From: Thermoproteota archaeon | Lineage (GTDB): Archaea > Asgardarchaeota > Jordiarchaeia > Jordiarchaeales > Freyrarchaeaceae | Assembly: GCA_029258835.1 (NCBI GenBank) | Contig: JAPDJY010000008.1 | Span: 1 to 64,000, forward strand | Direction of reading: 5' to 3' | DNA: 64,000 nt | Shown here: positions 6,776-32,714 of the stretch, in pieces | Layout: each line of letters opens with the position of its first letter | Position numbering within the stretch: the stretch's first letter is position 1 | The notes under the pieces: generated by a model | What the model was told of the DNA's origin: nothing | The model's input: only the letters and a program-made list of their open reading frames with translations | Databases searched by the model: none | Position numbers and translations under genes: made by a program

Positions 6776-6874
6776 GGGCCGATAGCTCAGCTAGGTAGAG
6801 CGCCGGGCTCTTAACCCGGTGGTCGCGGGTGGGTGTTCAAAGCCCCGCGAATTCGAATCCCGCTCGGCCCGCCA
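6776..6874 (+). tRNA. tRNA-Lys(CUU) with an encoded CCA and a 22-nt non-canonical intron (6830..6851) between positions 53 and 54 in the T-arm.
   Basis: Acceptor stem GGGCCGA/TCGGCCC, D-arm GCTC-AGCTAGGTA-GAGC, anticodon arm CCGGG-CUCUUAA-CCCGG. The T-arm GCGGG/TTCGAAT/CCCGC forms only after removing 6830..6851. The intron folds as a 4-bp helix cgcg:cgcg, 3-nt bulges (ggt, aat) and a hairpin. Confidence 0.8.
6830..6851 (+). other. tRNA intron with a relaxed BHB (H-B-h') motif, located in the T-loop.
   Basis: Removal is required for the T-arm to form. H is 6824..6827:6846..6849, the cuts fall after the 2nd bulge nucleotide. Confidence 0.75.
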
Positions 6875-6937
6875 TTTACTCAGGTTTACTGGAGTGAGCC
6901 TGCTTTTCTAGCTTCTTTAGTTTGGAGAGTTGGCGTT

Positions 6938-8059
6938 ATGATGCGTACTTCTCGTTGTGTGATTGTAAAGCGCTTGATGGCTGAGCGAGCTCGCCGCTTT
7001 CTGGTTAGTTCCGGGCTTCTGGACCGTAGTCTTAAACCTGTGCCTGTCCGCGGCGTTCCCACCCCCTGTGAGGCTGCTTCAGACGTAGACGATGAAGGAA
7101 GTACTCTCGATTTTGTTATTTTCCCCGTTAAGCGTGCTCTTTCGAAGGGGGAGGAGGAAATGTTGAGGGAAATTGTTGGTTTTCTTCAGGTTTGCTCTTT
7201 CTCCTTCCCTGTTAGGGAGGTGGGTGGCAGGTTAGTAGACGTGCTTAGGGGTTATTTGCCTGACGACGCGTTGCCCTTTGTTCCCAGATCGTATGATATT
7301 GTAGGTGACATTGCTGTTTTAGAGTTGGCGCCGGAAGTTTGGGATTTTAGGAATGTTATTGGCGAGGCTGTTTTGAAGGTTAATAAGCATGTACATGCGG
7401 TGTTCGCGAAGGGGGGAAGAGTGAATGGAACCTACCGGGTCAGGCGTCTCGTTCACATTGCTGGCGAAACGAGAACTGTTACGTTTCACCGTGAGAACGG
7501 GTGTGTTTTCAAGGTTGATATTGAACATGCCTATTTTAGCCCTCGCCTGTCAGGTGAACACGCTAGGGTGGCTACCCAGGTTAGGAGGGGAGAAGTGGTT
7601 GTGGACCTGTTCGCTGGTGTTGGCCCATTCGCGATCTTGATAGCTAAACGGTATGGTGGAATTGTGCATGCCATTGATTTAAATCCATTTGCAGTGGAGC
7701 TTCTCAAAGAAAACATACGGCTTAACAAGGTTTCCAACGCTGTTTTCCCTTATTTGGGGGATGCAAGGCTCATTGTGGAGTCCTATTTGATGCATGTTGC
7801 TGACCGTGTGATCATGAACCTTCCAGGGATGACTTACAGGTTTATTGATGTCGCTTGCCTAGCCATGAAGAGAGATGGAGGAATTGTACATTACTACCAG
7901 TTTGGAAGGGGAAATAACGCGTGTGAAGACGCGGTTGAAACGTTGGAGAAAGGCGTTAGGGGTGCCGGCAGAAGGGTTAAGAAGGTTTTAACTGTTAGAA
8001 AGGTTAGGTCTACGGCTCCCAGAGAATGGCAGATAGTGGTCGATGCCGTAATAGAATGA
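6938..8059 (+). CDS. Trm5/Tyw2 (Met-10+)-family tRNA methyltransferase.
   Basis: Class I SAM-methyltransferase fold with N-terminal Trm5-like domains. The ORF-track start at 6833 overlaps the tRNA, so the ATG at 6938 is chosen. Confidence 0.65.
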   Translation: MMRTSRCVIVKRLMAERARRFLVSSGLLDRSLKPVPVRGVPTPCEAASDVDDEGSTLDFVIFPVKRALSKGEEEMLREIVGFLQVCSFSFPVREVGGRLVDVLRGYLPDDALPFVPRSYDIVGDIAVLELAPEVWDFRNVIGEAVLKVNKHVHAVFAKGGRVNGTYRVRRLVHIAGETRTVTFHRENGCVFKVDIEHAYFSPRLSGEHARVATQVRRGEVVVDLFAGVGPFAILIAKRYGGIVHAIDLNPFAVELLKENIRLNKVSNAVFPYLGDARLIVESYLMHVADRVIMNLPGMTYRFIDVACLAMKRDGGIVHYYQFGRGNNACEDAVETLEKGVRGAGRRVKKVLTVRKVRSTAPREWQIVVDAVIE

Positions 8060-8560: not shown

Positions 8561-9293
8561 ATGAGGCGGGAGGCTTTGAGGGAAACACTTCTTGAAAAGA
8601 AGAAGAGGCTTATAGAACGGTTGAAAATAGAAGGCTTTGTTAGGGATGAAAGGGTGATCAAGGCTTTCCTAAAGGTTCCAAGAGAGAAGTTTCTACCCGA
8701 CGAGTTGAAGGAGTACGCTTATGATGACCGTCCACTTCCGATACCAGGGGGTCAGACGATATCCGCGCCACATAGAGAGTTTACTCTCTAGGCGAGACAT
8801 GTGTGTTTTAATGTGTGACCTCCTAAAACTGTGTGAAGGCATGAAGGTTCTTGAAGTTGGAGCAGGATCAGGCTATCATGCAGCTCTTTGCGCCGAAATA
8901 GTAGCTCCCGAGGAGGCAAGCAAGAAGGGACACGTGTACACCATTGAACGCATGAAGGAACTAGTGGATTTTTCTAGGAAAAACCTTGAGAGGGCTGGTT
9001 ACGGGGATCGTGTCACGGTCATTCTAGGCGACGGGACTCTCGGGCACCCTGAAGCCGCACCGTACGATGCTATTTTGGTAACAGCCGCTGGCCCCGACAT
9101 TCCCAAGCCTCTACTTGACCAGCTTGCGCGGGGTGGACGCATGGTCATACCGGTAGGTCGTTTCTACTACAGTCAAACATTGGTCTTAGTGGAGAAAGAC
9201 GAGAAGGGCCGTGTCAGGAAAAAGGACTATGGAGCCGTGGCATTTGTACCCTTAGTCGGGGAGTACGGCTGGAACAAACCTTACCTAGGATAA
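8561..9293 (+). CDS. pcm: Protein-L-isoaspartate O-methyltransferase interrupted by a 25-nt putative BHB intron. The CDS is join(8561..8771,8797..9293).
   Basis: ORF 8561..8791 encodes the PIMT N-terminus and ends …[12 protein letters not shown] 8721..9293, in a +1 frame, encodes the remainder: MCVLMCDLL…[11 protein letters not shown] (motif I)…[12 protein letters not shown]. Joining across the 25-nt excision gives a continuous PIMT. Confidence 0.8.
8772..8796 (+). other. Putative mRNA mini-intron (relaxed BHB) within pcm.
   Basis: Central helix cgcc(8766..8769):ggcg(8791..8794). Bulges aca(8770..8772) and aga(8795..8797). Intron hairpin tagagag:ctctcta (8773..8779:8784..8790). Cuts after the 2nd bulge nucleotide remove exactly the 25 nt that restore the frame. 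Confidence 0.65.
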
Positions 9294-16595: not shown

Positions 16596-17975
16596 TTAAG
16601 CCGCCTCCACCCCTTCCTTTCCCAGTATCCCCCTTGCGGCTATTATTCCTGTGGCGGCAGCTCCAACTATCCCCCTCGATAGTCCAGCTCCGTCACCTGC
16701 CACGAAAAGGTTTTCAACGGCTGTCTCCAAGTTTTCACCTGTAATCACCTTTTTTGCCGAATACTTTATTTCCGGAGCGTAAAGAAGGGTGGAGTCACTT
16801 GCTATTCCCGGTATAACCTTGTCCAGTTTTTCTATTCCTTCGATTATACTGGTAAGAATCCTGTGGGGTAGCCCCATCGATAGGTCCCCTGGAGTAGCGG
16901 CGTCTAAGGTGGGTCTTACGGCGCCGAGCTTTATGCGCTTCCATGTGGATCGTCGTCCCTTCCTGAGATCTCCTAACTTTTGGAGTAGCGGCCTCCCCCC
17001 ACCTAAGATCGTTGTTTGTCGTGCGATAGCGTTCCCATACGCCGTTGTGTCCTCGAGAGGCTCCGTTAGCTCTATTCTGCTTAAAAGAGCAAAATTGGTG
17101 TTTGGTGAAGGCTTTTCAAGAAAAGAGTGCCCGTTAACCCCTACATGATCCTCGTAGACCTCCATGACCACATAGCCATGATGGTTGACGCAGAACGTCC
17201 TCACGAAGTCATCGAAGCGTGAAGTGTAAATGTGAAACTTCGGGTCCCTCTGAATGCTGCATATTGGCTCCATTATCGTAGCTGGAACCTCCACCCGTAC
17301 CCCTATGTCCACAGGCACATGGCTTGTTTCCACATTAAGCTGAGCCATCTGCTCCGCAAGCCACCTCATACCCGACCTTCCCGGCGCCAAAACACAGTAG
17401 TCATAGTGTAAGGCTACTCCGGATGAAAGTAAAACTTCATTCCTTCCCACTTTTACTGCCTTCGTTCTGAGAATGAATTTCACCCCTTTACTTTTCAACT
17501 TCTCCTCTAACTTTTCGATGACACGCTTAGCGTTTTCAGTACCTATTAACCTCTGAACTATTGGTATAAATGTTATACCGGCCGATGCCGCCTTCCTCTC
17601 AAGCTCTTCAACCTTCGCCTCATCCGGCTTGAATAAGATTGTAGGAGCTCCACACTCCACGAAAATTTGGTCGACATATTCAACTAAGTCCCATGCTCGC
17701 TTCTCAGATCCGACCAGCTCCACTAAGTCTCCTCCGATTCTTGGGTGAAGATTTAAAAGGCCGCTAGAGAAAAGCCCTGCCCCGCCAACACCACTCATTA
17801 TATTGCACGGTTTACAGCGTGTGCACATCTTATATCTCTCTAAGGGGCACTTCCTTTCGGAGGCGTTAGCCCCCATCTCCACAATGGTTACATCGAAGGC
17901 TCTACTCTTGGCAAGTTCGTATGCTGCAAATAGCCCAGCCACCCCTCCCCCAACTATTACAACCTTCTTTTTCAC
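16596..17975 (-). CDS. FAD-dependent oxidoreductase (COG2509-like).
   Basis: N-terminal GxGxxG dinucleotide motif [11 protein letters not shown] and a second glycine-rich motif near the C-terminus. Confidence 0.6.
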
Positions 17976-18382
17976 TTTTCAATCCCTTCTTCCCTTCGGG
18001 AAAGCTTAAGTATTCTTAAAGCAAGGTGCGCAGCGTTCTTAGCATTATCTATTCCAACGCAAGCCACTGGAACGCCAGAAGGCATCTGCACCATCGAAAG
18101 AAGAGCATCTAACCCTCCTAGCTTAACGCTGACTGGTACCCCTATCACCGGCTTGTCGGTCCTTGAAGCGATGAATCCTGGAAGATGCGCTGATAACCCG
18201 GCAATTCCTATGAACACCTTCGCATCGGTAGAGGCAATATACTCCTCCAACTCTTTCGGGTTCCTATGGGCTGACAGAACCCTCACTTCGAAACTTACAC
18301 CGTTCTGAGCTAAGACCTCTATAGCTTTTTCAGCTACATCCCGGTCACTTTCACTGCCTAAAATAACCGCTACGTCAACCAT
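17972..18382 (-). CDS. purE: N5-carboxyaminoimidazole ribonucleotide mutase.
   Basis: The sequence [13 protein letters not shown]…[19 protein letters not shown] is a PurE signature. Confidence 0.9.
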
Positions 18383-18414
18383 TATCTCACCTCTTCCAGC
18401 TTGGAACCTCTCAG

Positions 18415-19890
18415 CTAGAACTCGTACTCTATACGTCCCCTTCCTGGAATCCAGTCAATCTGCCTTCCAATCAACCCCTTTTCACGCCTGTAACGGTATA
18501 TTTCTCTTATTAACTCTGCTATTTCAACCCTCTCTCTTAGTAAAACTTCGGATCCTATGTCTGAGCGATGGAACAACTTCCAATCATCTTTCAAGTATAC
18601 GAAAGATATACACTTCTCAGCTATCTCTGAAGCTTTGGGTATGCTTTCCGCCTCCGCAAATATTTCAGCCGCTCTTGAGCCTCCTGTAATCATCCCTCCA
18701 TTTTTACTATTAATTGAACCGTAAAATACGCGTCCCCCATTCTCCAGTATCCTGTCTTCTTCCACAACTATCGGGTGGCCTCTGGCCAGATCCCTCCTGT
18801 TAGGATATCCCATGGGGGCAATGCACTTCACCACGGTAGCTACGTCTCTAAATTCGAGCTTAACCTTGTTAAGGGACTGGGAAATTATTGCCTCTGCGAT
18901 CTCCACAAGATCAGTTTCCAATATGGGCAAAACATTTACCGCTTCAGGGTCGCCGAACCGCGAGTAAAACTCTATTATTGTCGGTCCCCACAGGGCTGTA
19001 AGCATCATCTGCCCTGCTATGATCCCCCTATACGGTTCCCCGGTTTCCCTTTCTATAGCTCTTACCGTCTGCTGAACTATCTCAACAGACTCCCTGTATT
19101 CCTCCATGGAAATAAATGGTAATGTTACCCCTGGACCAGAAATACTCCCCATACCACCAGTCTCAGGGCCAATATCCATCTCGTAGGCGTTCTTGTTGTC
19201 TTGAACCAGAGGAAGCGGCTTAACCACTCGTCCATCAGTGAAACATTGGAGAGTATACTCTGGCCCCTCAACCTTTTGCTCTATCAGAATCTTATCCTCA
19301 ATGTCCGTGTAAGGTCGCATGTGCTCCTTAACTATGCTCTTAACATGTTTCTTCTTAACCTCTTCTTTCTCTTTTTTCAGGTACGCCTGGAGGTCGGCGA
19401 TCACCTTCACCCCTTTGCCCCCCGCCTGCCGGGCTGGCTTGAGAGCAACGCTTTCCGCGTACTCTTCAATGTACGCTATTGCATCGTCGATGTCCTTAAA
19501 GGCCATGAACCTTAGTCTTCCCGGTATCTTATATTTCCACATGAGGCGGCGCATAAACGCCTTAGACATTTCTATTTCTGACGGCGCCCTTCTAGCCCCG
19601 ACGCACGGTATCCCTCTCCTCTCCACCTCGTCTGCCACACCATGGAACTGTGGTTCCTCCGGCCCTATAAAGACAAAGTCCACCGAGAAGCGCTCGGCGG
19701 CGTCGGCTACGAAGCTGGGGTCTGTCGGCTTACCAAGCCTCACCTCTCCTCCAGTATGGTCACATAGCCTCGCGATCCCAGGGTTCTTTAAACCCATAAC
19801 AGCATATAATCTGGGTTCTTGCGGACTTCGAACCAATGCGTCTGCAATAGCATGTTCCCTCGCGCCTTCACCAACCAAGAGAACTTTCAT
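18415..19890 (-). CDS. purD: Phosphoribosylamine-glycine ligase (GAR synthetase), with a C-terminal extension of about 45 aa.
   Basis: ATP-grasp PurD motifs. The protein is 491 aa, against about 430 aa typically. Confidence 0.85.
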
Positions 19891-21236
19891 TTATTCTCCT
19901 CCAGATACGGGTATTCTCCGGTGAAGCATCCCAAGCAAAGCTTATTTTTCGGGAGACCTATCGCTTTGATCATTCCTTCAAGGGATAGCCAAGCGAACGT
20001 GTCAGCCCCTACAACCTTACTTACTTCCTCCTCTGACAGGTGGGCCGCTATCAGCTCGTCCTTCTCTGGAACTTCGACTCCGAAGGGACATGGGGAAACA
20101 AGCCTTGAACTCCCTATCCGCACATGCACCTCTTTCGCCCCTATCCTGTTCCTCATAAGGTTCACGATGTTCCTAGTTGTAGTGCCCCTTACGACACTAT
20201 CGTCTATTAACACGACGCGTTTCCCCCTTATTGCCTTCCGGATAGGGTTAAGCTTTAACTGGACGCCTACAAGCCTCTCAAACTGGGTTGGTCTTATAGC
20301 CGTCCGCACGCTTCTACCACTTCTCACAAACCCCATATGGATCGGTATTCCCGTGGCGTTGGAATAAGCCATCGCGAATGGTATCGCTGTTTCAGGCACA
20401 CCTATTACAACGTCGGCGTCGACTGGAAACTCCTTAGCTAGGTACTCCCCGATCTTCATCCTAACCTCGTAAATCGACATTCCATTTATCACGGAATCCG
20501 GCCTGCAAAGGTAAACGTATTCGAAAGCACAGTATTTTTCCTCCTCCCTACACACCCTCTTACGTTCAATGCTGTACGGAGTTATAACGTATATCTCTCC
20601 TGGCATGATGTCCGCTTTTAAGTCTGCCCCAACAACGTCTATTGCAGCGCTCTCCGATGCGACCGTACCATGGTCAAAACCGAAGCTGCCTATAACTAAG
20701 GGTTTTATTCCCTTAGGATCCCTTGCAACTATCATTTCACCCTTATCGGTGAGGGCGACTAAAGAATAGGCTCCCCGCATTTTTTCCATCAAGGCTTCCA
20801 TGGCTTCTAGGGGGTCACTATGCTTAAGGTTTTCTGCTAAAGCAGTTGCGATCGCCATGGGATCTCCGTCCTCGCTAACCTTCTCGCCTGTCAGCTCGTT
20901 GCAGTTAAGGACTTTCCCATTATAGCCTAAGGCGACTTTAACATCCCCGTTGACGCACACCGGCTGTATGTTATCGTCCGATTCAGGGTTTAGTGGGCTT
21001 ACGTGCCCGATCCCCACCCATCCGGTTAGCGCTTCAACACTGCTCGAAGTGAAGAAGTTTTCAGCCAGCCCTCTACCCTTAAGAACTTCCACCCTTTTCC
21101 CGTTGAAGACCGCCATGCCACTTGTCTCCTGCCCCCTATTCTGGAGGGCAACCAGACCATAGTATACAAATCTTGAAACGTTCCAGTTTTCATCGAAGGC
21201 GTAAATTCCAAATATGCCGCACCTATCCCTGCTCAC
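19887..21236 (-). CDS. purF: Amidophosphoribosyltransferase, paralogue 1.
   Basis: N-terminal nucleophile Cys (MSRDRCGIFGI), Ntn glutaminase domain and PRTase domain. Confidence 0.85.
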   Translation of the reverse strand: MSRDRCGIFGIYAFDENWNVSRFVYYGLVALQNRGQETSGMAVFNGKRVEVLKGRGLAENFFTSSSVEALTGWVGIGHVSPLNPESDDNIQPVCVNGDVKVALGYNGKVLNCNELTGEKVSEDGDPMAIATALAENLKHSDPLEAMEALMEKMRGAYSLVALTDKGEMIVARDPKGIKPLVIGSFGFDHGTVASESAAIDVVGADLKADIMPGEIYVITPYSIERKRVCREEEKYCAFEYVYLCRPDSVINGMSIYEVRMKIGEYLAKEFPVDADVVIGVPETAIPFAMAYSNATGIPIHMGFVRSGRSVRTAIRPTQFERLVGVQLKLNPIRKAIRGKRVVLIDDSVVRGTTTRNIVNLMRNRIGAKEVHVRIGSSRLVSPCPFGVEVPEKDELIAAHLSEEEVSKVVGADTFAWLSLEGMIKAIGLPKNKLCLGCFTGEYPYLEENK

Positions 21237-22657
21237 CTTCTGGCGCCTCCAAGCGTTTTCTCTAAGAGTTCAACGTCTATGTTTTCTATGGGGTACCTTC
21301 CGTTTAGGCAGGCGAGGCATAACTCGCTTTCAGGCAGTCCTATACCTTCAATTAATCCCTCAATCGTCATGTAACCTAGCGAGTCAGCTCCGATAAATCG
21401 ACATATTTCCTCGACTGTGTGACTTGCCGCGATAAGCTCTCTCCTGGTGGGGAAGTCTATTCCCATATAGCACGCAGCTATTATAGGTGGACAGCTTACC
21501 CTGACATGGACTTTTTTGGCGCCGGCTCTCTTAAGCATGGCTACGATCTGCTTGATGGTGGTGGAACGCACTATTGAATCGTCTACGAGAACTATCTCAC
21601 GGTCCTTGACAATGCTCTTCACAGGGTTAAACTTTAAGCGGACCTGATTTTCCCTATGTGCCTGAACAGGCATTATGAACGTCCTCCATACGTATCTGTT
21701 TTTCATCAAGCCTTCAGCCATCGGTATGCCTGACTCCTCGGAGTAGCCGGTGGCTGCGCTTCTTCCCGAATCGGGAACTGGAACAACTAAGTCTGCATCT
21801 GCGGGATGTAGCTTGTAAAGAATTCTTCCAAGTCTTTCTCTAGCTTCATAAACCGGCACACCGTCAAAGACGCTGTCTGGCCTTGAAAAGTAGACGAACT
21901 CGAACATACATCGGGCGTGGCGCTTAAGGCTTATCGCCGTCCGCCTAGTAACCTCTCCATCTGCCACTCTAACTATTTCTCCGGGGGATATGTCGCTTAT
22001 GAATTCTCCTCCAAGAGTATCAATCGCCGCCGTCTCCGATGCCATAGCATATATGTCATTCTGAGGAAGCCATCCGAGGCATAATGGTTTAAATCCTAGG
22101 GGATCTCTAACCCCGTATATTTCTCCATTATCAGATAGAAGGACGAGCGAGTATGCTCCTTCAAGTTGCTTCATAGTTAGCGTTAACGCGTCCATGTAGT
22201 CTTCAACTTCTAGAAGGTTTGCAGCTATTAAGTGTGCTATAACCTCCGTGTCGCTGTCTGACGTGAACACATGCCCCTTTTCCTCTAGCTCCCGCCTTAG
22301 CGATAGAAAGTTTGAAATTGTCCCGTTGAATGCTATTGCAAAGTTGGCATAAGTTGAGGTGAAGTGGTAGGGCTGAGCATTCTCTAGGTCGCTTTTAGCG
22401 GTTGTACTGTAACGTACATGTCCTATCGCCACGTTCCCCATTAAACTAGATAAAAGGCTCCTCGAGAAAACCTCGCTAACAAGACCCAAACCCTTATGGC
22501 CCTTAATGTTCTTACCGTTATACACGTAAATTCCAGCCGACTCTTGCCCTCTATGTTGAAGGGCGACTAGGCCGTCGAAGGTGTACCTTGAAACCTGTAT
22601 GGTTTTCTGGGGGGCTGAAAGAGCTACCACTCCGCAGTGCTCCCGTACTTCCCCCAT
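21233..22657 (-). CDS. purF: Amidophosphoribosyltransferase, paralogue 2 (tandem duplicate).
   Basis: N-terminal Cys (EHCGVVAL) and the same two-domain architecture. It is full length and overlaps its neighbour by 4 nt. Confidence 0.8.
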   Translation of the reverse strand: MGEVREHCGVVALSAPQKTIQVSRYTFDGLVALQHRGQESAGIYVYNGKNIKGHKGLGLVSEVFSRSLLSSLMGNVAIGHVRYSTTAKSDLENAQPYHFTSTYANFAIAFNGTISNFLSLRRELEEKGHVFTSDSDTEVIAHLIAANLLEVEDYMDALTLTMKQLEGAYSLVLLSDNGEIYGVRDPLGFKPLCLGWLPQNDIYAMASETAAIDTLGGEFISDISPGEIVRVADGEVTRRTAISLKRHARCMFEFVYFSRPDSVFDGVPVYEARERLGRILYKLHPADADLVVPVPDSGRSAATGYSEESGIPMAEGLMKNRYVWRTFIMPVQAHRENQVRLKFNPVKSIVKDREIVLVDDSIVRSTTIKQIVAMLKRAGAKKVHVRVSCPPIIAACYMGIDFPTRRELIAASHTVEEICRFIGADSLGYMTIEGLIEGIGLPESELCLACLNGRYPIENIDVELLEKTLGGARR

Positions 22658-22658
22658 T

Positions 22659-24878
22659 TTACCCCCCTCTCATAGCGTTTGGGAGAGTACTCCTCCAAGC
22701 AGAAGTCATGTCCTCAACCCCACATGATATAACAGGCTCCCCTCTAAATTTAAGGGTAAACATTCCATCCTCACAAACAACACCAATTCTGGAGAGAGGA
22801 ACTTCCAGTTTCCTCGCAATCTGGAAAATATCTTCTAAGTGACTGGAATCGGCAGAAATTATAAATCTTGAATGGGTTTCAGAAAACAGCAGCTCGTCTA
22901 AGCGCATATCCTCAGCTGCTACGCAGGATAGCTCGGCTTCCACCCCGAATCCGCTTTTCACGGACATGAGCGCTAAGGCAACCGCCAGCCCGCCCTTAGA
23001 GCAGTCGTGGGCAGCCTTAAGCAAGCCCTTTCTGGCTGCCTCCAAGATAAACCTTAAACTCCTCTTCTCTCGTTCAAAATTCACCGAGGGCGGCTTCCCT
23101 CCCTCAACCCCGTGGATAACATAGTAATACTCCGTTCCGCCCATCTCTCTAAGCGTTTCCCCTATCATTAAGATCTCGTCACCTTGCCTCTTAAACGGCA
23201 TCGTCACCATCCTGCTAAGTGGCTCTATAACCCCTAAAGCAACAACGACGGGTGAAGGCTTCACCGCGCGGCCAGTAACTTCATCCTCATTATAAAAACT
23301 CACGTTGCCTCCCACGCAAGGAACGTTCAGGGCGTTGCACATGTCAGCTATCCCCCGCACAACCTCCTTAAACTGCCAGAAAACCTCCGGCTTCTCAGGA
23401 TTGCCAAAGTTAAGGCAATCCACTATTGCTATGGGTTCCGCCCCGACAGAGGCGATATTCCTGCAAGCTTCCGCTACGGCCCCTGCTCCGCCACCGTAAG
23501 GGTCAAGGTAGCAGTGCCTAGAATTACAGTCACTTGACAGGGCGATCCCCCTGTCCTCCCCAAGTATCCTCATTACTGCTGCGTCTCCTTCACCACACTT
23601 TAACACGCTCCTTACTCCAACCTCATGGTCATACTGCTGGTAGATCCACTCCTTGCTTGCAATGTTCTCAGATGATAAAAGCTTCATGAGGGTCGCTGAG
23701 AGATCCTTAGGCATAGGTGGAACTTCAATGTTAAGTAATTCATCCAAATATCTTGGCCTCCCAGCCTCCCTATAAATTACAGGCGGGTCCGCAAGAATCT
23801 TAGTTGGAAGCCTTGCGACAACTTCCCCCCTAAACTTGACGATGATCTCCTCTTTTTCAATTACTTTTCCTATGACTCTCCATGGAAGCCCGTACTTATC
23901 CATGACCGCCGCTACTTTATCCAAGCCTTTAGGATCTACTATGAAGAGCATCCTTTCCTGCGACTCGGAAAGCATTATTTCAAACGGAGTCAAGTCTGGC
24001 TCTCTAAGATGTACGTTAGATATCTCAAGCTCCATTCCCTTTCCACCCTTATATGACATCTCCGAGGAGGCACAAGTAAGTCCTCCACCACCAAGATCCT
24101 TAAGTCCATGTACAGCCCCCGTCCTCACGGCTTCAAGCGTCGCTTCTATTATAAGTTTTTTAGTAAATGGATCTCCCACCTGCACTGCAGGCCGCTCCTC
24201 CTCGGACTTTCCCGTTAACGTGCGTGACGCGAAGGTTACACCATGTATTCCGTCTCTTCCCGTCGCCCCTCCCACCAGTACAACCAAGTCGCCAGGCTTG
24301 TCCGCTCTTGCAAGAACCAACTCGCCCCTCCTAGCTAACCCAACGCAGGCTACGTTGACAAGGCAGTTTCTTTCAAAGCTTTCATCAAACTCGACCTCGC
24401 CTGCAACAGTCGGTATCCCGGTGCAATTGCCATAATCACCTATCCCTTTCACCACATATTTAAGCAGCCACCTTGAATGGGGGCTTCTGAGGGAGCCGAA
24501 ACGTAAAGGATCAAGGAGAGCTATCGGCCTAGCACCCATGCAGAGAATGTCACGTATTATCCCTCCAATCCCCGTGGCTGCGCCGTTGTACGGGTCTATC
24601 GCGGATGGATGATTATGTGACTCTATTTTGAAGACCGCCACGTAACCTCCGCCAACGTCAACGACGCCTGCATCATATCCTGGCCCAACAACCACCCTCC
24701 CTCCCTCCTTGGGGAGGATCCTGAGAACAGGCCTAGACGACTTGTATGAGCAGTGCTCAGACCACATTACATCTATCATACCCGCCTCTACAGGGTTAGG
24801 CTCCCTGCCGAGTATCTTCCTTACCTTCTCGACTTCTTCTTCCGTAAGGTCGACTTCGATGTTACCGAGCAGTGGCAA
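22659..24878 (-). CDS. purL: Phosphoribosylformylglycinamidine synthase II.
   Basis: 739-aa PurL with AIR-synthase-related domains. Confidence 0.9.
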
Positions 24879-25584
24879 CAGCCTCGCCCCTCAAAAACTC
24901 AACCATCGACTCAAATATTATACGTCCATCATGGCTCCCGTTGCCGCTCAAGATCGGCTCAGAAGCCCGCTCTGGATGGGGCATGAGCCCTAAGACATTT
25001 CCTTCAAGGTTACATATCCCGGCTATATTGTCCAAGGAACCATTCGGGTTTGCTTCCGGGACGACCTCACCCCTAGCGTTTGAATACCTGAAAACAACTT
25101 GACCGTTATCATGCAACTCCCTAAGTCCCTTCTCATCGTTAAAGTAGCACCCTTCATTGTGGGCTATCGGCATCTTCAGCACTTGCCCCCTCCTACCCTT
25201 CCACGTGAACGCTGTCCGGTCGTTTTCAAGCTTTAGATAAACCCATTTACATATGAATGTGAGTGTTACGTTCCTTAGAAGTGCACCGGGAAGCAAACCT
25301 GCCTCAACTAGAATCTGAAATCCATTACATATTCCCAGCACGGGCTTCCCTTCCCGTGCCATCTCCTTAACGTGCTTCATCGCCGGACTGTACGCAGCTA
25401 TAACACCTGCTCTTAAAGCGTCACCATACGAGAACCCTCCTGGAAGTACCACGGCGTCGTATGCATCAGCTTTAAACTCTCTGTGCCAGACAAGCTCGGC
25501 ATCCACGTTTATGACATGACGTAGAACATATACAGTATCCAAGTCACAATTTGACCCTGGAAACTGGATAACAGCTATCTTCAT
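24862..25584 (-). CDS. purQ: Phosphoribosylformylglycinamidine synthase I (glutaminase subunit).
   Basis: Class I glutamine amidotransferase with a GICNGFQ catalytic Cys. Confidence 0.9.
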
Positions 25585-25844
25585 TTTCTACCTGCCTCTT
25601 TAATACTGCACGCATGGATCACGGGGTTGAAAATCCGCAGGTCATTACACATTCTGAAGACGATCTCCCTTGCTTCCTCGCTGCTTCCCGCTTCAACCTC
25701 TATCCTCAAGTATTTTCCCGTCCTTACGTTCCTAACCATTTCAAAGCCATTACGATGCATCAGGTCTCTAAGTATAGTTTCTCCCTCAGGATCCCTAGCT
25801 GTAGGCTTGTTCTCGATCACAACCTCCAGCACGTACGTGCCCAA
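25581..25844 (-). CDS. purS: Phosphoribosylformylglycinamidine synthase subunit PurS.
   Basis: 87 aa, positioned between purQ and purC. Confidence 0.8.
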
Positions 25845-25859
25845 GAACCCGTCCTCCTA

Positions 25860-26621
25860 TTAAAGCTTGGGTGCTTCCCCAATAATTTTCCTGTAACACT
25901 CGACGTATGTATCGAGGACTTCGCTCAGCGGCGCCCCCCGTCTGTAAACGTCCTTATCTAAGATCTTCCCCGTCATCTTATCCCAAAGTCTCATGGAGTC
26001 CCCGTTAATCTCGTCTCCTACATATATTTTCCCGTCCGCTCCTCGGCCAAACTCTAACTTGAAGTCGACAAGGGTTATGCCTATGCTGTCGAAGAAGTCG
26101 GAGAGCACTTTGTTAACCCTAAGTGTAATCTCCTTTATGTTTTTAATTTCTTCACGGGATGACGATAAACCTAACACTATAAAGTGGTCTTCGTTTATCA
26201 TCGGGTCATGGTGTAAATCGTCTTTTAAGTAATACTCAACAACAGGGATCTTAAGGGGTGTCCCAGCTTCAACGGGATATCTCTTTGCAAAGTGCCCTGC
26301 AGCTATGTTACGGCAAACCACCTCGACAGGTAGCATTTCAAGTCGTTTGACAACCATGTAGTTCGGCTCGATGAAAGATACATAATGGGTTGGAATCCCA
26401 CTTCTTGATAAAACCTCGAACAGGATGGCCGATATCCTCGCGTTTATCCTACCCTTACCTTTAATGAAGTCCTTTTTCTCTCCATCTAGAGCCGTTATTG
26501 CATCCTTAAACTCTAGGAGAACTAAGTTTGGGTCACTCATCCTCCGCACGATTTTCGTTTTCCCCTCAGCTATTACTTCCATTTCCGCCGGGTTCTCGTC
26601 TAACTTCATTTTCCCATCCAA
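25860..26621 (-). CDS. purC: SAICAR synthetase.
   Basis: PurC fold motifs (…EGKTKIV…). Confidence 0.9.
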   Translation of the reverse strand: MDGKMKLDENPAEMEVIAEGKTKIVRRMSDPNLVLLEFKDAITALDGEKKDFIKGKGRINARISAILFEVLSRSGIPTHYVSFIEPNYMVVKRLEMLPVEVVCRNIAAGHFAKRYPVEAGTPLKIPVVEYYLKDDLHHDPMINEDHFIVLGLSSSREEIKNIKEITLRVNKVLSDFFDSIGITLVDFKLEFGRGADGKIYVGDEINGDSMRLWDKMTGKILDKDVYRRGAPLSEVLDTYVECYRKIIGEAPKL

Positions 26622-27766: not shown

Positions 27767-28824
27767 AGAAGTAGGCGTTTAATAACCTGCTCAAGAACCC
27801 CTATAGATTTCAAGTAATCGTGTATGTTGATTCTCTCCTCCTCGGTATGGTCTAAGCGTGGATCCCCTGGTCCATAGGTGACGACGTCAGCCCTCCTAAA
27901 ATGGTTTCCGTAGTAGTTCATATCTCCTGTCCCAGTCTTCCTTATTAAGCGAGGTTCTTCACCGAAAAAATCCTTCACAGATTTCCTGAAGGCAGCCACA
28001 AGGCGAGAGTGCTTATTAGACTCGTATGGTTCGACGGCATCAGCCACCTCTAACCAGCATTTAACATCTTCACTCCCACTCGATTTAACTGTGTTTTCAA
28101 CGATATCGACCGCATGCTTGCATCTCATTCCGAAGGGAACCCTTAACGATAAGTCTATTCTAGCCCTACTCCTTCCCCCACTTATGGACTCTATCGAGCA
28201 AGAAAGCGATCTTAAGGGTGTTTTCTCCTCTAACGGCTTAATTTTCTCCTTTATCATCCCCCAAATTTTTATTATTTCCTCCGATGCATTCTTCACGTTT
28301 GGATTTGCCGGGTGACCTGGTTTAACTCTCACGTTCACCGAAACATGAACGTTCCCTTTATACCCGATGACTACGTTCCTAGCATTGCTTGGCTCCCCGA
28401 AAACGGCATACTCCGCCTCCACACCTGAAGATATCAATTCCTTGACACCTCTAGAACTTCCTTCTTCGTCGACAACCCCTGAAACAATTAACGTTCCGTT
28501 CAATGGCGTATTCGCCACTTTTTTAGCCGCCATGACCATGGCGGCCAATGGACCCTTAGCGTCGACAGCCCCCCTACCAGTTACCTCTCCCCCTAAGACC
28601 TTTACAGGGAGGAACCCTGGAACCGTATCCATGTGTCCGCATAAGAGAAGCCTCGGTTTCCCGTCACCTAACTTTCCCACTACGTTCCCTACACCATCCA
28701 TTTTAGCGTCAAAACCGTCTCTCTCCATTTCCTCTAAGAGGAAGGTTGCCAGCTCCTCTTCCTCCCCCGTTGGACTATAGATTTCAAGCATCCTCTTAAG
28801 AAAGTCGACCGGATTCAATCTCAC
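27763..28824 (-). CDS. lysK: M20-family deacylase, [LysW]-lysine/ornithine hydrolase (LysK/ArgE-like).
   Basis: M20 peptidase metal-binding motifs. It is the last gene of the lysWXYZJK-type cluster. Confidence 0.8.
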   Translation of the reverse strand: MRLNPVDFLKRMLEIYSPTGEEEELATFLLEEMERDGFDAKMDGVGNVVGKLGDGKPRLLLCGHMDTVPGFLPVKVLGGEVTGRGAVDAKGPLAAMVMAAKKVANTPLNGTLIVSGVVDEEGSSRGVKELISSGVEAEYAVFGEPSNARNVVIGYKGNVHVSVNVRVKPGHPANPNVKNASEEIIKIWGMIKEKIKPLEEKTPLRSLSCSIESISGGRSRARIDLSLRVPFGMRCKHAVDIVENTVKSSGSEDVKCWLEVADAVEPYESNKHSRLVAAFRKSVKDFFGEEPRLIRKTGTGDMNYYGNHFRRADVVTYGPGDPRLDHTEEERINIHDYLKSIGVLEQVIKRLLL

Positions 28825-30005
28825 ATCACCAGTACTTCAGAGAGAACTTGAGAAACTCTCCTTACCTGTTCTTCTTCGATGACTAATGGAGGGAGAAGCC
28901 GTATCACGTTAAGCCCGGAGGTTAAAAGAAGGATGCCTCTCTCCATAGCTTTAAACACATACTCTCTGCATCTCAGGCGGAGTTCAACGCCAATCATAAG
29001 TCCTAAACCTCGAACCATCCTGATAAGCTTAGAGCTCTCCTTCATTTCATCCAAATCTTCCTTGAGGATCCCACCCAGCTTTCTTGCCCTTTCAGGGAGT
29101 CTCTCCTCAACTATAACGTCTATCGCCGCGTTCGCGGCGGCGCACGCCAGCGGGTTCCCTCCGAACGTAGAGGCGTGCTCCGTCTCCTTAAGGGATAACA
29201 TGACATCCTCTCTTGCTAGCGTTGCCCCCATGGGTACTCCTCCAGCTATAGCCTTCGCCATGGTCATCACGTCTGGTACGACGTTCCAGTGCATGCACGC
29301 AAACATTTCCCCCGTTCTCCCAAATCCGGTTTGAACCTCATCGAAGATCAGTAAGACACTTTTTTCATCGCAGATTTCCCTTAGCTCCTTTAAGTACTCT
29401 CTAGGAGGAACGTTGACTCCTCCCTCCCCTTGGATCGGCTCAACAAGCACGGCTGCTGTTTCATTGTTGATCGCGGCCCTTACAGCTTCAGCGTCTCCAA
29501 AGGGGACATGAGTGAATCCTGGAACAAGCGGCTCGAACGGCTTCCTATACTTTGCCTCCCAAGTCGCAGATAACGCACCCATAGTCCTACCGTGGAATCC
29601 CTTGACCGTTGCTATTATCCCCTTCTTTCCAGTATACTTCCTAGCAAGCTTTATAGCGCATTCAACGGCTTCAGCCCCGCTGTTACATAGGAAAACCCTA
29701 TTGAGCCCTTTTGGGGCGATCTTGACAAGTTTTTCTACCAGCTCAGCCCGAGCATCATTGTAAAATATTCCAGGACAGGTGATCAGCCGCTCTGCTTGCT
29801 CCCTTATTGCCTCAACTACCTTTGGATGGCAGTGTCCAACCACGCAAACACCATGCCCACCCACGCAGTCTATATATTCCCTTCCATTTTCATCCCAGAC
29901 TATGGCTCCACTCCCCTTAACTATGACAACCGGCCTTTTAGAGTACGTTTTGGCTTGATACCGCTCCTCGAACTCTATAATTTTCTCCCTGCTTAGCTTA
30001 CTCAT
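28821..30005 (-). CDS. lysJ: Class III PLP aminotransferase, LysJ/ArgD.
   Basis: Acetylornithine-aminotransferase family motifs and its position in the cluster. Confidence 0.85.
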   Translation of the reverse strand: MSKLSREKIIEFEERYQAKTYSKRPVVIVKGSGAIVWDENGREYIDCVGGHGVCVVGHCHPKVVEAIREQAERLITCPGIFYNDARAELVEKLVKIAPKGLNRVFLCNSGAEAVECAIKLARKYTGKKGIIATVKGFHGRTMGALSATWEAKYRKPFEPLVPGFTHVPFGDAEAVRAAINNETAAVLVEPIQGEGGVNVPPREYLKELREICDEKSVLLIFDEVQTGFGRTGEMFACMHWNVVPDVMTMAKAIAGGVPMGATLAREDVMLSLKETEHASTFGGNPLACAAANAAIDVIVEERLPERARKLGGILKEDLDEMKESSKLIRMVRGLGLMIGVELRLRCREYVFKAMERGILLLTSGLNVIRLLPPLVIEEEQVRRVSQVLSEVLVM

Positions 30006-30804
30006 TAACCATCACCGTACACTCTTTTCCCCTTAAAGTACTCGTTATAGGCTCGGGATCTAGTCCCGAAGAAATAAAAACCTTCTTAACGCCTGCATCT
30101 AACGCCTCCAATGCTGCGAAAACCTTCCTTCTCATTCCGCCCTCAAGCTTCGGGACGGTAAGTCTTGCTTCGCTCCTGCTAAGCATTCTAACGAGTTTTC
30201 CTCCGTCCAGGACCCCTGGTACGTCAGTTAGGAGCACCAACACGTCCGCTCCTATCGCTCCTGCAACGCTGGCAGCAGCCCTGTCTCCGTCTACGTTCAG
30301 GAACTCGCCCTCCTGCCCTATCGCAACGGATCCTATAACCGGTACATAACCTGCACTAAGCAGGCAACCCAGAAGACCCCTGTTCACCTCAACTATCTTG
30401 CCAGTATAGTCTCCGTCGATCAAAATAACTTTTCCTCCCTCTCTAACCTTTATTCGTTCTTTCCTTTCAGCCTTAATGAGGAACCCGTCTATTCCGGAAA
30501 GACCTACGCTCCGCACTCCTTCCCTACTTAATGAGGCAACAATGTGCTTGTTTAACAGTCCGCTTATCACCATCGTGTAAATCTCGGCTGTTTCCTTATC
30601 CGTGTATCTGCTTCTAAACCCGCTTACGGAAAGTACAAACCTCTGCTTTTTCCCCATTCTCTCAGCTACCTCTGTGACCTTTCTTGCACCGCCATGGACG
30701 AGGACGACCTCTTCTCCATGATCCCTTAACCTTCTAACATCCCTTGCAATGTCGCTTATATCTCGGTCTAATACGCTTCCACCTATTTTAACAACCAGCC
30801 TCAA
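29998..30804 (-). CDS. lysZ: Amino-acid kinase, LysZ/ArgB.
   Basis: The sequence MRLVVKIGGSVL… is typical of the AAK family. Confidence 0.85.
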   Translation of the reverse strand: MRLVVKIGGSVLDRDISDIARDVRRLRDHGEEVVLVHGGARKVTEVAERMGKKQRFVLSVSGFRSRYTDKETAEIYTMVISGLLNKHIVASLSREGVRSVGLSGIDGFLIKAERKERIKVREGGKVILIDGDYTGKIVEVNRGLLGCLLSAGYVPVIGSVAIGQEGEFLNVDGDRAAASVAGAIGADVLVLLTDVPGVLDGGKLVRMLSRSEARLTVPKLEGGMRRKVFAALEALDAGVKKVFISSGLDPEPITSTLRGKECTVMVNE

Positions 30805-30813
30805 GCTACCGCC

Positions 30814-31860
30814 TCACGGGAAGATGCTTGGAGCGTTCAGTCCGAGCGCCTCATCCCAGCCCTCCATCACATTCATGCACTGAACAGCCTGTCCAGCAGC
30901 ACCCTTAACAAGGTTGTCTAAAGCTGATAGAACCACCAGCCTCGAAGCGTGAGGGTCCAGCTCAAATCCAACATCGCAAAAGTTGGAGCCTACAACCGCC
31001 TTTGGGTTAGGAAGCCTGTAAAGTCCCGTTTTCTGTTTAACTATCCGGACAAAGGGCTCGTTACCATAAAACGCCCTGAATGCCCTCCAGACGTCCTTCT
31101 CCTCCGGCAGCTCGTCCAAGAAAAAATGTATTGTAGACAGGATCCCCCTAACCATGTCAATGGAATGAGCTGAGAGAGCCACCTTCACCTGCCTGCCCGT
31201 CACCATCGAAAGCTCCTGCTCTATTTCGGCCGTATGCCTATGCCCCGTCACCTTGTAAGGTCTGACAACGCCCACCCTTTCAGGGTGATGTGTTGACTCT
31301 GTTGCCTCCCTGCCGGCTGCGGAGGAGCCTATTTTAGCATCAACAACTATTCTTTCGGGGTCGATGCTGAACGATGCCACTATGGGTGCTGCCCCTAAAA
31401 TAGCACTCACAGCGATGCATCCGGGGCACGCGACCAGCCTCGCCCCCCTCAATTCTTCCCTGTGTAGTTCAGGTAGACCATACACGGCTTCTTCAAGTAA
31501 CTCAGGCCTCTCATGCCCCCCGTAATATTTCTCGTAGGCCACCTTATCCTTCAGCCTGAAGTCCGCACTTAAGTCTATGACCTTTAACCCAACATCTAAT
31601 AAGTCAGGAGTTAACTTCATCGACGATCTGTGAGGCACAGCCATGAACACATAGTCGCACTTCTCCGAAGCCAACGTGACGTCGTACTCTTCAAACTTTA
31701 TATTCACGAGCTTCCTAAGGTTCGGGTGGACGTCTCCAATGAATTTCCCCGCATATCGCCTTGAGGTGACATAGGTTACTTCAACTTTAGGATGCATGCA
31801 AAGCAGTCTGAGAAGCTCTCCTCCGGTATACCCTGACCCTCCAACTATGCCAACCCTCAT
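30814..31860 (-). CDS. lysY: N-acetyl-gamma-glutamyl-phosphate/LysW-aminoadipyl-phosphate reductase, LysY/ArgC.
   Basis: The sequence MRVGIVGGSGYTGGELLRLL… and an active-site Cys region. Confidence 0.85.
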   Translation of the reverse strand: MRVGIVGGSGYTGGELLRLLCMHPKVEVTYVTSRRYAGKFIGDVHPNLRKLVNIKFEEYDVTLASEKCDYVFMAVPHRSSMKLTPDLLDVGLKVIDLSADFRLKDKVAYEKYYGGHERPELLEEAVYGLPELHREELRGARLVACPGCIAVSAILGAAPIVASFSIDPERIVVDAKIGSSAAGREATESTHHPERVGVVRPYKVTGHRHTAEIEQELSMVTGRQVKVALSAHSIDMVRGILSTIHFFLDELPEEKDVWRAFRAFYGNEPFVRIVKQKTGLYRLPNPKAVVGSNFCDVGFELDPHASRLVVLSALDNLVKGAAGQAVQCMNVMEGWDEALGLNAPSIFP

Positions 31861-32714
31861 TTTACCCTCTCCAAAACATAGTCAATTATCATCCCTGGAA
31901 TGTCTATCCCTGTCACGGGAACTGTTGTGTGGAACTCTACAGTGTGGTTCACCTCGTTAACCATCATCCCATTAGGCCCTGCTAGTATGTCGATGCCATA
32001 GACCCCGTCTCCGCCTACAGCCTTAGCAGCCCTCAAGCTTAACTCCTCTATTTCAGCTGTTACCGGGCAAGGCTCTGCTCTTCCTCCTAGGGCAGTATTC
32101 GTTCTCAACTCTCCTTCCGCTGCAACCCTATAGATGGCTGCCACCACTCTGTCTCCCACAACGAAACTTCTTATGTCCCTATTCATCTCCTTCTCAACAT
32201 ACTCTTGAAGATAAAATGTCTGGTAAAGAGCCCCCATGAAAACTCTATCCTCTAAGATGGCCCTTGCTGTCTGAGGATCCTTTAACGGCGCTACCAGCCG
32301 ACCCCAACTTCCCAAGGTAGGTTTTATGACCGCCGGGTATCCTAGTTTTTCTAATGCTCTAAGAGCTGAGTCAACATCAAATGCTATTAGGGTGTGGGGA
32401 GTTGGAATGCCCTCCCTAGCCAGAGCCAACGTGGTAAGAACCTTGTCAGCACAGATCCTAGAAGCCTCAAAAGAGTTTATTACAATGTGCCCCTTCTCCT
32501 CAAGGAGTTTTGATATGTAAAGCCCTTTGATCGTACTTACACTCCGCTGAAGGTAGACATCCACTTCAGGCACATTATCTAAGTTACCGGTTAAGTCTAG
32601 GAAAATGCTTTTTTGATCTATGATTATCGGCTTAGCCCCTCTCTTCTCGACTGCTCTTATTAACGCTTTTTCATCCCATCGAACCCTGTCACATATGAGG
32701 CCCACCGTAATCAA
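31857..32714 (-). CDS. lysX: RimK-type ATP-grasp ligase, LysX/ArgX.
   Basis: ATP-grasp fold, located adjacent to lysW. Confidence 0.85.
   Translation of the reverse strand: MITVGLICDRVRWDEKALIRAVEKRGAKPIIIDQKSIFLDLTGNLDNVPEVDVYLQRSVSTIKGLYISKLLEEKGHIVINSFEASRICADKVLTTLALAREGIPTPHTLIAFDVDSALRALEKLGYPAVIKPTLGSWGRLVAPLKDPQTARAILEDRVFMGALYQTFYLQEYVEKEMNRDIRSFVVGDRVVAAIYRVAAEGELRTNTALGGRAEPCPVTAEIEELSLRAAKAVGGDGVYGIDILAGPNGMMVNEVNHTVEFHTTVPVTGIDIPGMIIDYVLERVK

Follow-up and report, generated by a model that had tools for sequence, protein, structure and literature searches.

We analysed a stretch of 64,000 nucleotides from an archaeon of the Freyrarchaeaceae (Asgardarchaeota, Jordiarchaeia; contig JAPDJY010000008.1, positions 1 to 64,000, hereafter the window), in which the gene pcm, at 8561..9293 on the forward strand, is interrupted by 25 nt at 8772..8796. 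Comparison of this gene with its relatives makes it highly likely that the 25 nt form a bulge–helix–bulge (BHB) intron of the pcm pre-mRNA spliced by the tRNA splicing endonuclease, and pcm is very probably the second real case of archaeal mRNA splicing after cbf5. The host gene encodes protein-L-isoaspartate O-methyltransferase (PIMT), giving a full-length equivalog match once the insert is removed. The case for the intron rests on comparison across genomes, the motif by itself being insufficient.

Interruption of pcm and its predicted spliced product

The first open reading frame (ORF1) and the predicted segments of pcm are listed below; the remainder of pcm lies in the +1 frame and ends at the TAA at 9291-9293.

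8561..8791, forward strand: ORF1, 76 aa, beginning MRREAL, with a TAG stop at 8789-8791
8561..8771, forward strand: predicted pcm exon 1, encoding Met1 to Pro70 and supplying the initial C of the His71 codon
8772..8796, forward strand: putative BHB-type intron, ATAGAGAGTTTACTCTCTAGGCGAG, 25 nt, splitting the His codon of SAPHM in phase 1
8797..9293, forward strand: predicted pcm exon 2, the AC of the His71 codon, Met72 to Gly235 and the TAA stop at 9291-9293

Excision of ATAGAGAGTTTACTCTCTAGGCGAG (8772..8796, 25 nt) yields a single open frame of 235 codons. The predicted spliced 30-mer at the junction is ATATCCGCGCCAC/ACATGTGTGTTTTAATG, and its unspliced counterpart contains GCGCCACATAGAGAG. 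A first-pass annotation of this DNA had claimed that the pcm halves lie in different frames and that removing exactly 25 nt restores the SAPH-M junction. This holds, the 235-aa product aligning without gaps over SAPHM with the PIMT structures 1jg1, 2yxe, and 4o29 (E values of 2e-68 to 4e-55). The product also scored above the cut-offs of the NCBIfam equivalog NF010549 (290.3 bits versus 282) and of TIGR00080 (235.6 versus 159). The sequence ACAT occurs at both borders, which makes four adjacent 25-nt deletions (starts at 8772, 8773, 8774, and 8775) equivalent in the window allele, with an identical product. Many other deletions also reopen the frame but leave extra residues within the invariant SAPHM motif. 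A target-site duplication was considered and rejected, as the ACAT border repeat is not conserved across alleles.

Predicted fold at the insert

In the window allele, the BHB fold coincided with the centroid structure and was contained in the minimum-energy fold. Its predicted elements are as follows.

8754..8765, forward strand: weak outer closure, exon-1 side, with G8765:C8798; 8754-8762 can pair with 8799-8808 (prediction)
8766..8769, forward strand: central helix H, 5' strand CGCC (exon 1), bases 2 and 3 of the Ala codon and bases 1 and 2 of the Pro codon
8770..8772, forward strand: 5' splice-site bulge ACA, predicted cut 8771/8772
8773..8790, forward strand: inner helix h', 7-bp hairpin TAGAGAG/CTCTCTA with the loop TTTA
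8791..8794, forward strand: central helix H, 3' strand GGCG (intron), pairing with CGCC at 8766-8769
8795..8797, forward strand: 3' splice-site bulge AGA, predicted cut 8796/8797
8798..8808, forward strand: weak outer closure, exon-2 side (prediction)

Helix H has exactly 4 bp between both predicted cleavage sites and is flanked by two 3-nt bulges on opposite strands, and the inner helix h', which needs at least two Watson–Crick pairs, has 7 bp. The 5' exon contributes one strand of H and the first two bases of the 5' bulge, and the 3' end of the intron contributes the other strand of H and the first two bases of the 3' bulge. Beyond G8765:C8798 lie mismatches, a small internal loop, and then a G:U-rich exon–exon helix. 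The first-pass annotation had described a splicing-endonuclease BHB motif; its 4-bp CGCC:GGCG helix, ACA and AGA bulges, and 7-bp hairpin stand, whereas the motif is not a strict hBHBh', as the outer helix, which that annotation did not mention, consists of one pair. Because the outer helix has only one pair, the pcm motif is of the relaxed HBh' form. Relaxed motifs are assigned in the literature to (alpha-beta)2 and epsilon2 endonucleases (PMC5829648). The endonuclease cuts between bulge residues 2 and 3 (PMC2738675), and the cuts predicted by this rule, 8771/8772 and 8796/8797, coincide exactly with the homology-restoring deletion.

Alleles in Jordarchaeia and Freyarchaeia

The closest database proteins were all C-terminal fragments of 149-191 aa from Candidatus Freyrarchaeum guaymaensis, Freyarchaeota, or Jordarchaeales, and the contigs of these relatives were syntenic with the window, with TYW2, DUF371, the N-terminal piece of pcm, the C-terminal piece of pcm, and FEN1. 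Six distinct Jordarchaeia alleles, including two GTDB species representatives, were compared at 71-80% protein identity. The insert was present at the same codon in all six, with lengths of 25, 29, 31, 31, 32, and 32 nt, and always in the order CGCC, bulge ACA or ACU, hairpin, GGCG, bulge AGA, ACA, or AAA, and YAUG. Exon 2 was offset by +1 or +2 among these alleles, and one cut rule restored SAPHM in each. Two of them (L001 and L006) had the same hairpin stems and were one loop base apart (31 versus 32 nt), shifting exon 2 from +1 to +2, and the cut rule restored SAPHM in both despite the frame difference. Compensatory stem changes were found between the alleles, for example TAGAGAG/CTCTCTA versus TAAAGGGCTT/AAGCCCTTTA. 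The nearest homologues outside Jordarchaeia, from other Asgard archaea, Methanomethylicia, and Thermoprotei (59-64% identity), were full length.

A FEN1 gene that appeared split in one Jordarchaeales metagenome-assembled genome (MAG; L003, 1559..2609) was considered as a second split gene and rejected, the break being a 10-N scaffold gap.

Alleles in Bathyarchaeia

In a Bathyarchaeia MAG (L011) whose PIMT showed 50% identity, the same pcm codon holds an insert of 30 nt, and the CGCC:GGCG helix recurs. When JGI metagenomes were scanned with the pattern GCGCCNCNTN{8,38}TAGGCGANAYATG, at least 120 stretches matched; 89 of 120 among the matches listed were PIMT genes from a clade resembling Bathyarchaeia (GQTISAPH/MVSIMNEALQLEVG), and 80-odd distinct Bathyarchaeia alleles among the matches listed carried the insert at the same codon. 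When the product of exon 2, which is independent of the insert, was searched against proteins, 116 of the best 120 matches were 158-168-aa fragments that start at or just past the Met of SAPHM and bear the names Bathyarchaeia or Bathycorpusculaceae. Four alleles retrieved without using the insert sequence had the same motif, with inserts of 28, 28, 29, and 32 nt. Most members of a large Bathyarchaeia clade carry a 28-35-nt BHB insert at this codon (L011, L032-L151, L156-L159).

The inserts of Jordarchaeia and Bathyarchaeia share the first three hairpin pairs UAG...CUA (with minor variants UGG and UAA), helix H, and A-rich bulges. Despite these shared features, the PIMT proteins of the two groups are only approximately 50% identical. 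The shared site and the TAG...CTA base of the hairpin could possibly reflect common ancestry, transfer, or a preference of the enzyme.

Properties of the insert across alleles

The properties of the insert were compared among at least 90 distinct alleles, 83 of which came from the search pattern, which fixes the central helix. The inserts were 25-35 nt long, with lengths leaving a remainder of 1 in 49 alleles, 2 in 36, and 0 in 5 upon division by three. All five inserts of 3n length contain an in-frame stop, so that none of them can be read through, and a fixed frameshift is ruled out because the lengths span all three residues modulo 3. The tail of ORF1 comprises 2 to more than 20 junk residues, ORF1 passes the ATG in 32 of 90 alleles, and in three alleles the unspliced frame gives Leu in place of the conserved His.

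When 78 distinct sequences were aligned with the register as the anchor, 96.6% of the cells of the inner hairpin were paired, versus 17-42% when the partner was slid, and two-sided compensatory changes occurred at four of six aligned inner-helix pairs (51 cells). The covariation score of the inner hairpin was 0.243 versus 0.114 in shuffles, a value reached by none of 500. The middle base of the 3' bulge was free (A in 44 alleles, C in 22, G in 14, and U in 10), and the central helix was CGCC:GGCG in all 11 alleles obtained independently of the helix sequence. When both cuts were shifted from -4 to +4, the canonical register was the sole one that restored APHM in 89 of 89 alleles, the others doing so in 22-86. 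The earlier claim that the cuts after the second bulge nucleotide are those needed to restore the frame was thus borne out well beyond the window allele, and so was each of the other sequence-level predictions of the mini-intron that were put to the test.

Intronless alleles and distribution

Among full-length proteins, those that matched a spliced Bathyarchaeia allele best were from Bathyarchaeia, with 225 aa and 74-84% identity (88% over exon 2). The DNA of such intronless genes, TCG GCT CCA CAC ATG GTT or TCA GCG CCT CAC ATG GTT, equals the predicted ligated junction. An alignment of orthologues had been proposed in the first-pass annotation to see whether the insert is present or absent precisely at the predicted boundaries; the insert lies at the same codon in all relatives of this lineage, and intronless alleles lack exactly the predicted segment. 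Over a hundred intronless relatives were found alongside the approximately 90 distinct intron-bearing alleles, and the Jordarchaeia and Bathyarchaeia intron carriers each have closer intronless relatives. To judge from its distribution, the putative pcm intron is old or mobile enough to occupy the same codon throughout Jordarchaeia/Freyarchaeia and most of the large Bathyarchaeia clade. A neighbour-joining tree of 236 C-terminal sequences gave approximately 13 changes of intron state, which are indicative only because the tree is crude, and the intron appears, on this indicative evidence, to have been gained or lost several times in the Bathyarchaeia clade.

The third base of the Ala codon, which lies in helix H, is G in all 11 unbiased intron-bearing alleles. 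The Ala codons of intronless alleles (L153, L154, and L013) are GCT, GCG, and GCA. The comparison, from a small sample, suggests that the intron constrains the Ala codon of the exon.

Selection and replication

Among the Jordarchaeia alleles, nonsynonymous divergence (pN) was 0.13-0.16 in exon 1 and 0.14-0.18 in exon 2, versus synonymous divergence (pS) of 0.70-0.81 and 0.76-0.86, respectively. The pN/pS ratio was approximately 0.18 in both halves of pcm, and because pN is low in each while the synonymous sites are saturated, both halves are kept as coding sequence. No other lesion was found in pcm among the approximately 90 distinct alleles, which come from many environments. Six contigs, each assembled independently and coming from separate runs, carried the identical 25 nt, so that the insert is not an assembly artefact, which the first-pass annotation had named as a finding that would overturn its reading.

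A tRNA-Lys intron with a motif of the same type

A tRNA gene lies 1.9 kb upstream of pcm.

6776..6874, forward strand: tRNA-Lys(CUU) gene with a 22-nt intron at 6830..6851, position 53/54

This intron has the helix H CGCG:CGCG, the bulges GGU and AAU, and a 4-bp inner helix, and is without an outer helix (relaxed HBh'). It lies between the T-stem and the T-loop, and its removal gives the canonical arm GCGGG-UUCGAAU-CCCGC. ARAGORN and Rfam both detect the tRNA-Lys gene with the intron unmarked, and the Rfam scan of the window found nothing besides this tRNA. Introns are present in 92-95% of the tRNA genes of Freyarchaeia and Atabeyarchaeia, many of them at non-canonical positions (PMC11291895), and Asgard archaea are reported to have an (alpha-beta)2 endonuclease with a specificity-broadening L1 loop (PMC5829648), an enzyme type of broad specificity that is reported for TACK archaea as well. 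Because the tRNA-Lys intron needs removal, the organism must process relaxed motifs of the type found in pcm. The intron-bearing tRNA-Lys gene, together with the Asgard endonuclease literature, points to a host endonuclease that accepts relaxed motifs.

Other features of the window

An ORF of the TYW2/Trm5 type at 6833..8059 (408 aa) begins at a GTG inside the tRNA-Lys gene; its true start is probably approximately 40 codons downstream, because the orthologues in related MAGs have 340-367 aa. On the reverse strand, a purine-biosynthesis cluster at 16596..26621 (purE, purD, two purF-like genes, purL, purQ, and purC) and a LysX/ArgB/ArgC/ArgD-type cluster at 28821..32714 are all intact, and the assembly is thus not riddled with frameshifts. 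No other interrupted gene was found among approximately 40 window ORFs scanned against Pfam, all of which are intact, and a looser BHB scan of the window for further split genes returned hundreds of chance matches. The best-looking other compact motif, at 48829..48875 on the forward strand (H TCAC:GTGA, 9-bp inner stem, 47 nt), was rejected as a chance match because it is antisense to an intact DUF354 gene (48194..49267, reverse strand).

Proposed mechanism

Considering these results together, pcm expression in this archaeon probably proceeds as follows. In the pre-mRNA, the CGCC at the end of exon 1 pairs with the GGCG at the 3' end of the insert, forming the 4-bp central helix, with the 5' bulge ACA closed by the 7-bp intron hairpin and the 3' bulge AGA closed by one G:C pair and weak exon–exon pairing. 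The tRNA splicing endonuclease would then cleave after the second base of each bulge, and a ligase of the RtcB type would join CCAC to ACATG, rebuilding the His codon of SAPHM and the reading frame. The spliced mRNA would be translated into a normal PIMT of 235 aa, and the intron would be released, probably as a small circle.

Evaluation of alternative explanations

Several observations weigh against an endonuclease-spliced intron. The strict hBHBh' definition includes the outer helix h (PMC7714728), which needs at least two Watson–Crick pairs, and the window has a single G:C pair; across alleles, outer pair 1 (G:C or G:U) is formed in 100%, pair 2 in 21%, and pair 3 in 0%. The complete BHB was the minimum-energy fold in just 52 of 89 alleles, bulge 1 being unpaired with H formed in 74 of the 89 minimum-energy folds. 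The central helix showed zero covariation, so that only its conservation is claimable; it gives no covariation support because it is invariant and, in 83 of 90 alleles, imposed by the search pattern. The local fold energy was unremarkable (z = -1.3). A scan of 128 kb (both strands of the window) for compact motifs with four Watson–Crick pairs in H, 3-nt bulges, an inner stem of at least 7 bp, and a length of 12-40 found nine BHB-like motifs versus a shuffle mean of 8.1, and the motif alone is not significant. A search confined to the window found no gene for the splicing endonuclease or the ligase. The exact 235-aa spliced product is absent from a collection of 15 billion proteins, and all cluster members are fragments, an uninformative result. 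In addition, an ATG usable as a start codon lies precisely at the start of exon 2. The first-pass annotation had argued that an accidental frameshift would not be expected to carry a precise BHB motif; this argument is weaker than stated, because such motifs occur at chance frequency in the window, and what stands of it is the coincidence of both cuts with the sole junction demanded by homology, for which motif density gives approximately 1e-5 and which conservation across genomes strengthens further.

Because an ATG opens exon 2, the most serious rival is a split gene, in which a 76-aa N-terminal piece with a junk tail and a 164-aa C-terminal piece beginning at the Met of SAPHM assemble as a PIMT with an active or a regulatory role and the insert is an intercistronic spacer. 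The split genes of Nanoarchaeum are the model for such a pair of polypeptides. Gene callers annotate two ORFs in every genome, and purifying selection on both halves would equally be expected. However, a spacer has no need of a covarying hairpin, and a split gene explains neither why the Ala-Pro codons invariably pair with the insert's own 3' end nor why the border rebuilds the His codon in 89 of 89 alleles in a single register. The erratic tails of ORF1, which run past the ATG in 32 of 90 alleles, indicate no consistent stop–restart design, and the N-terminal piece is without the conserved His in three alleles. Furthermore, the break would bisect the most conserved motif, gapless in all solved PIMTs, and close relatives (74-88% identity) are uninterrupted. 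We regard a split gene as very unlikely. Only a slight chance is given to removal of the RNA segment by another structure-specific nuclease and a ligase, or to a regulatory hairpin that is removed conditionally. The poor closure of the 3' site would fit such a nuclease, as would the conservation of the TAG...CTA hairpin base and the A-rich bulges beyond what pairing needs. The 4-bp helix, the 3-nt bulges, and the cuts after bulge base 2 nevertheless form the known substrate geometry of the tRNA splicing endonuclease, which matches the tRNA-Lys intron of the window and the cbf5 precedent, and we know of no other archaeal system that excises such inserts precisely.

Translational recoding, in which a ribosomal frameshift or a hop over the insert, modelled on the bypassing in T4 gene 60, makes one polypeptide from the unspliced mRNA, is barely credible. 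A hairpin does follow immediately after the last in-frame sense codons, a short ACAT direct repeat flanks the window insert, and cbf5 introns were formerly misread as frameshifts (PMC2738675). No single shift fits, however, as the lengths fall in all classes modulo 3 among close relatives (31 versus 32 nt with identical stems), and a simple shift would put 8-10 extra residues inside SAPHM. Nor does the codon before the landing ATG (GAC, AAC, CAC, or TAC) match the take-off codon CAU or CUU, and the direct repeat is not shared across alleles, which differ in their sets of equivalent registers. A decaying pseudogene or a sequencing or assembly artefact, with an accidental 25-nt insertion that happens to fold, would agree with the chance frequency of BHB-like motifs and with a z-score of just -1.3. 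This explanation is effectively refuted by purifying selection and by replication in six independent assemblies, which carry the identical insert, and it retains next to no probability: every Jordarchaeia allele has the insert despite pS values of 0.7-0.86 and a pN/pS of approximately 0.18 in both halves, and the approximately 90 distinct alleles from many environments are otherwise free of lesions in pcm, with intact neighbour genes.

Comparison with known systems

The closest precedent for an endonuclease-spliced pcm intron is the intron of the cbf5 pre-mRNA in Crenarchaeota (Desulfurococcales and Sulfolobales; Watanabe 2002, Yoshinari 2006, Yokobori 2009). Both are short BHB inserts in a protein-coding gene (16-44 bp in cbf5, PMC2738675; 25-35 nt in pcm), and both lie between the first and second base of a conserved active-site codon, that of the catalytic Asp in cbf5. 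As in pcm, the cbf5 motif is usually relaxed, with the predicted cut between bulge residues 2 and 3, and the cbf5 introns are likewise patchy among relatives in a pattern of gain and loss and habitually mis-annotated as a frameshift or two ORFs (PMC2738675). However, cbf5 encodes a pseudouridine synthase and pcm a protein-repair methyltransferase, the insert sequences are unrelated, and the pcm intron occurs in Asgard archaea (Freyarchaeia/Jordarchaeia) and Bathyarchaeia. Because the host gene and the lineages differ, the pcm intron would work like the cbf5 intron but outside the cbf5 family. Splicing of cbf5 was confirmed by cDNA and in vitro cleavage, whereas that of pcm is predicted from sequence.

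The non-canonical BHB introns of archaeal tRNAs (Thermoproteales; Freyarchaeia/Atabeyarchaeia) have the same architecture and size as the pcm intron, and the tRNA-Lys intron of the window likewise has a GC-only 4-bp H formed from the 5' exon and the 3' end of the intron. The same enzymes presumably process archaeal tRNA BHB introns and the pcm intron. In contrast to tRNA introns, the pcm substrate, an mRNA, lacks the tRNA body that would aid recognition, and its borders are codon-constrained. An mRNA is likewise the substrate of the splicing endonuclease in the BHB intron of the 5' untranslated region (UTR) of HVO_1309 in Haloferax volcanii, which also has conserved flanks (Schwarz 2020, PMC7714728). 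This euryarchaeal leader intron nonetheless leaves the reading frame uninterrupted, whereas the pcm insert needs removal for the protein to be made. In eukaryotes, the XBP1 intron has 26 nt and is removed through cleavage by IRE1 and ligation by RtcB or Trl1. The introns of XBP1 and HAC1 resemble that of pcm in that splicing is independent of the spliceosome and catalysed by proteins, the intron is very short and defined by stem-loops, its removal changes the frame, and ligation is of the RtcB type (see also PMC13149111). They differ in that the nuclease is IRE1 instead of the tRNA endonuclease, that recognition depends on two 7-nt loops, and that splicing is a regulated stress switch.

Up to 2009, cbf5 was the one protein-coding gene with confirmed splicing (PMC2738675), and in 2020 cbf5 was the sole archaeal mRNA reported with a BHB intron besides the 5'-UTR case of that paper (PMC7714728). 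In the full-text literature, most subscription journals not being included, we found no earlier account of an intron in pcm or PIMT genes, nor of BHB introns in protein-coding genes from Asgard archaea or Bathyarchaeia.

Considering the alleles jointly, one shared BHB intron may link the Asgard lineage and Bathyarchaeia, being either ancestral with many losses or mobile between genomes, although we consider this reading as a whole rather unlikely. If mobile, the intron may enter this single codon with no homing endonuclease involved, through reverse splicing, for instance, or short-patch recombination over the conserved flanks. Removal of the intron might also gate production of the repair enzyme, as an archaeal counterpart of XBP1/HAC1 splicing. 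On the same rather unlikely reading, a large number of genes taken for 'truncated' in intron-rich archaea might in fact be spliced by the endonuclease.

Significance of the probable pcm intron

More than 100 clusters at 90% identity in the protein collection searched hold the enzyme only as a fragment of 158-191 aa, the named fragments being called 'protein-L-isoaspartate O-methyltransferase', 'methyltransferase domain-containing protein', or 'hypothetical protein'. Counts of PIMT in metabolic reconstructions would therefore be wrong. The pcm RNA is a short, well-defined substrate amenable to in vitro testing, and the intron-bearing and intronless pcm alleles constitute a natural dataset for intron gain and loss. 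With a second host gene, mRNA splicing by the endonuclease would prove to be more than a peculiarity of cbf5, and the pcm case, which runs through a whole Asgard class and is frequent in Bathyarchaeia, would extend the phenomenon past Crenarchaeota, into the closest archaeal relatives of eukaryotes.

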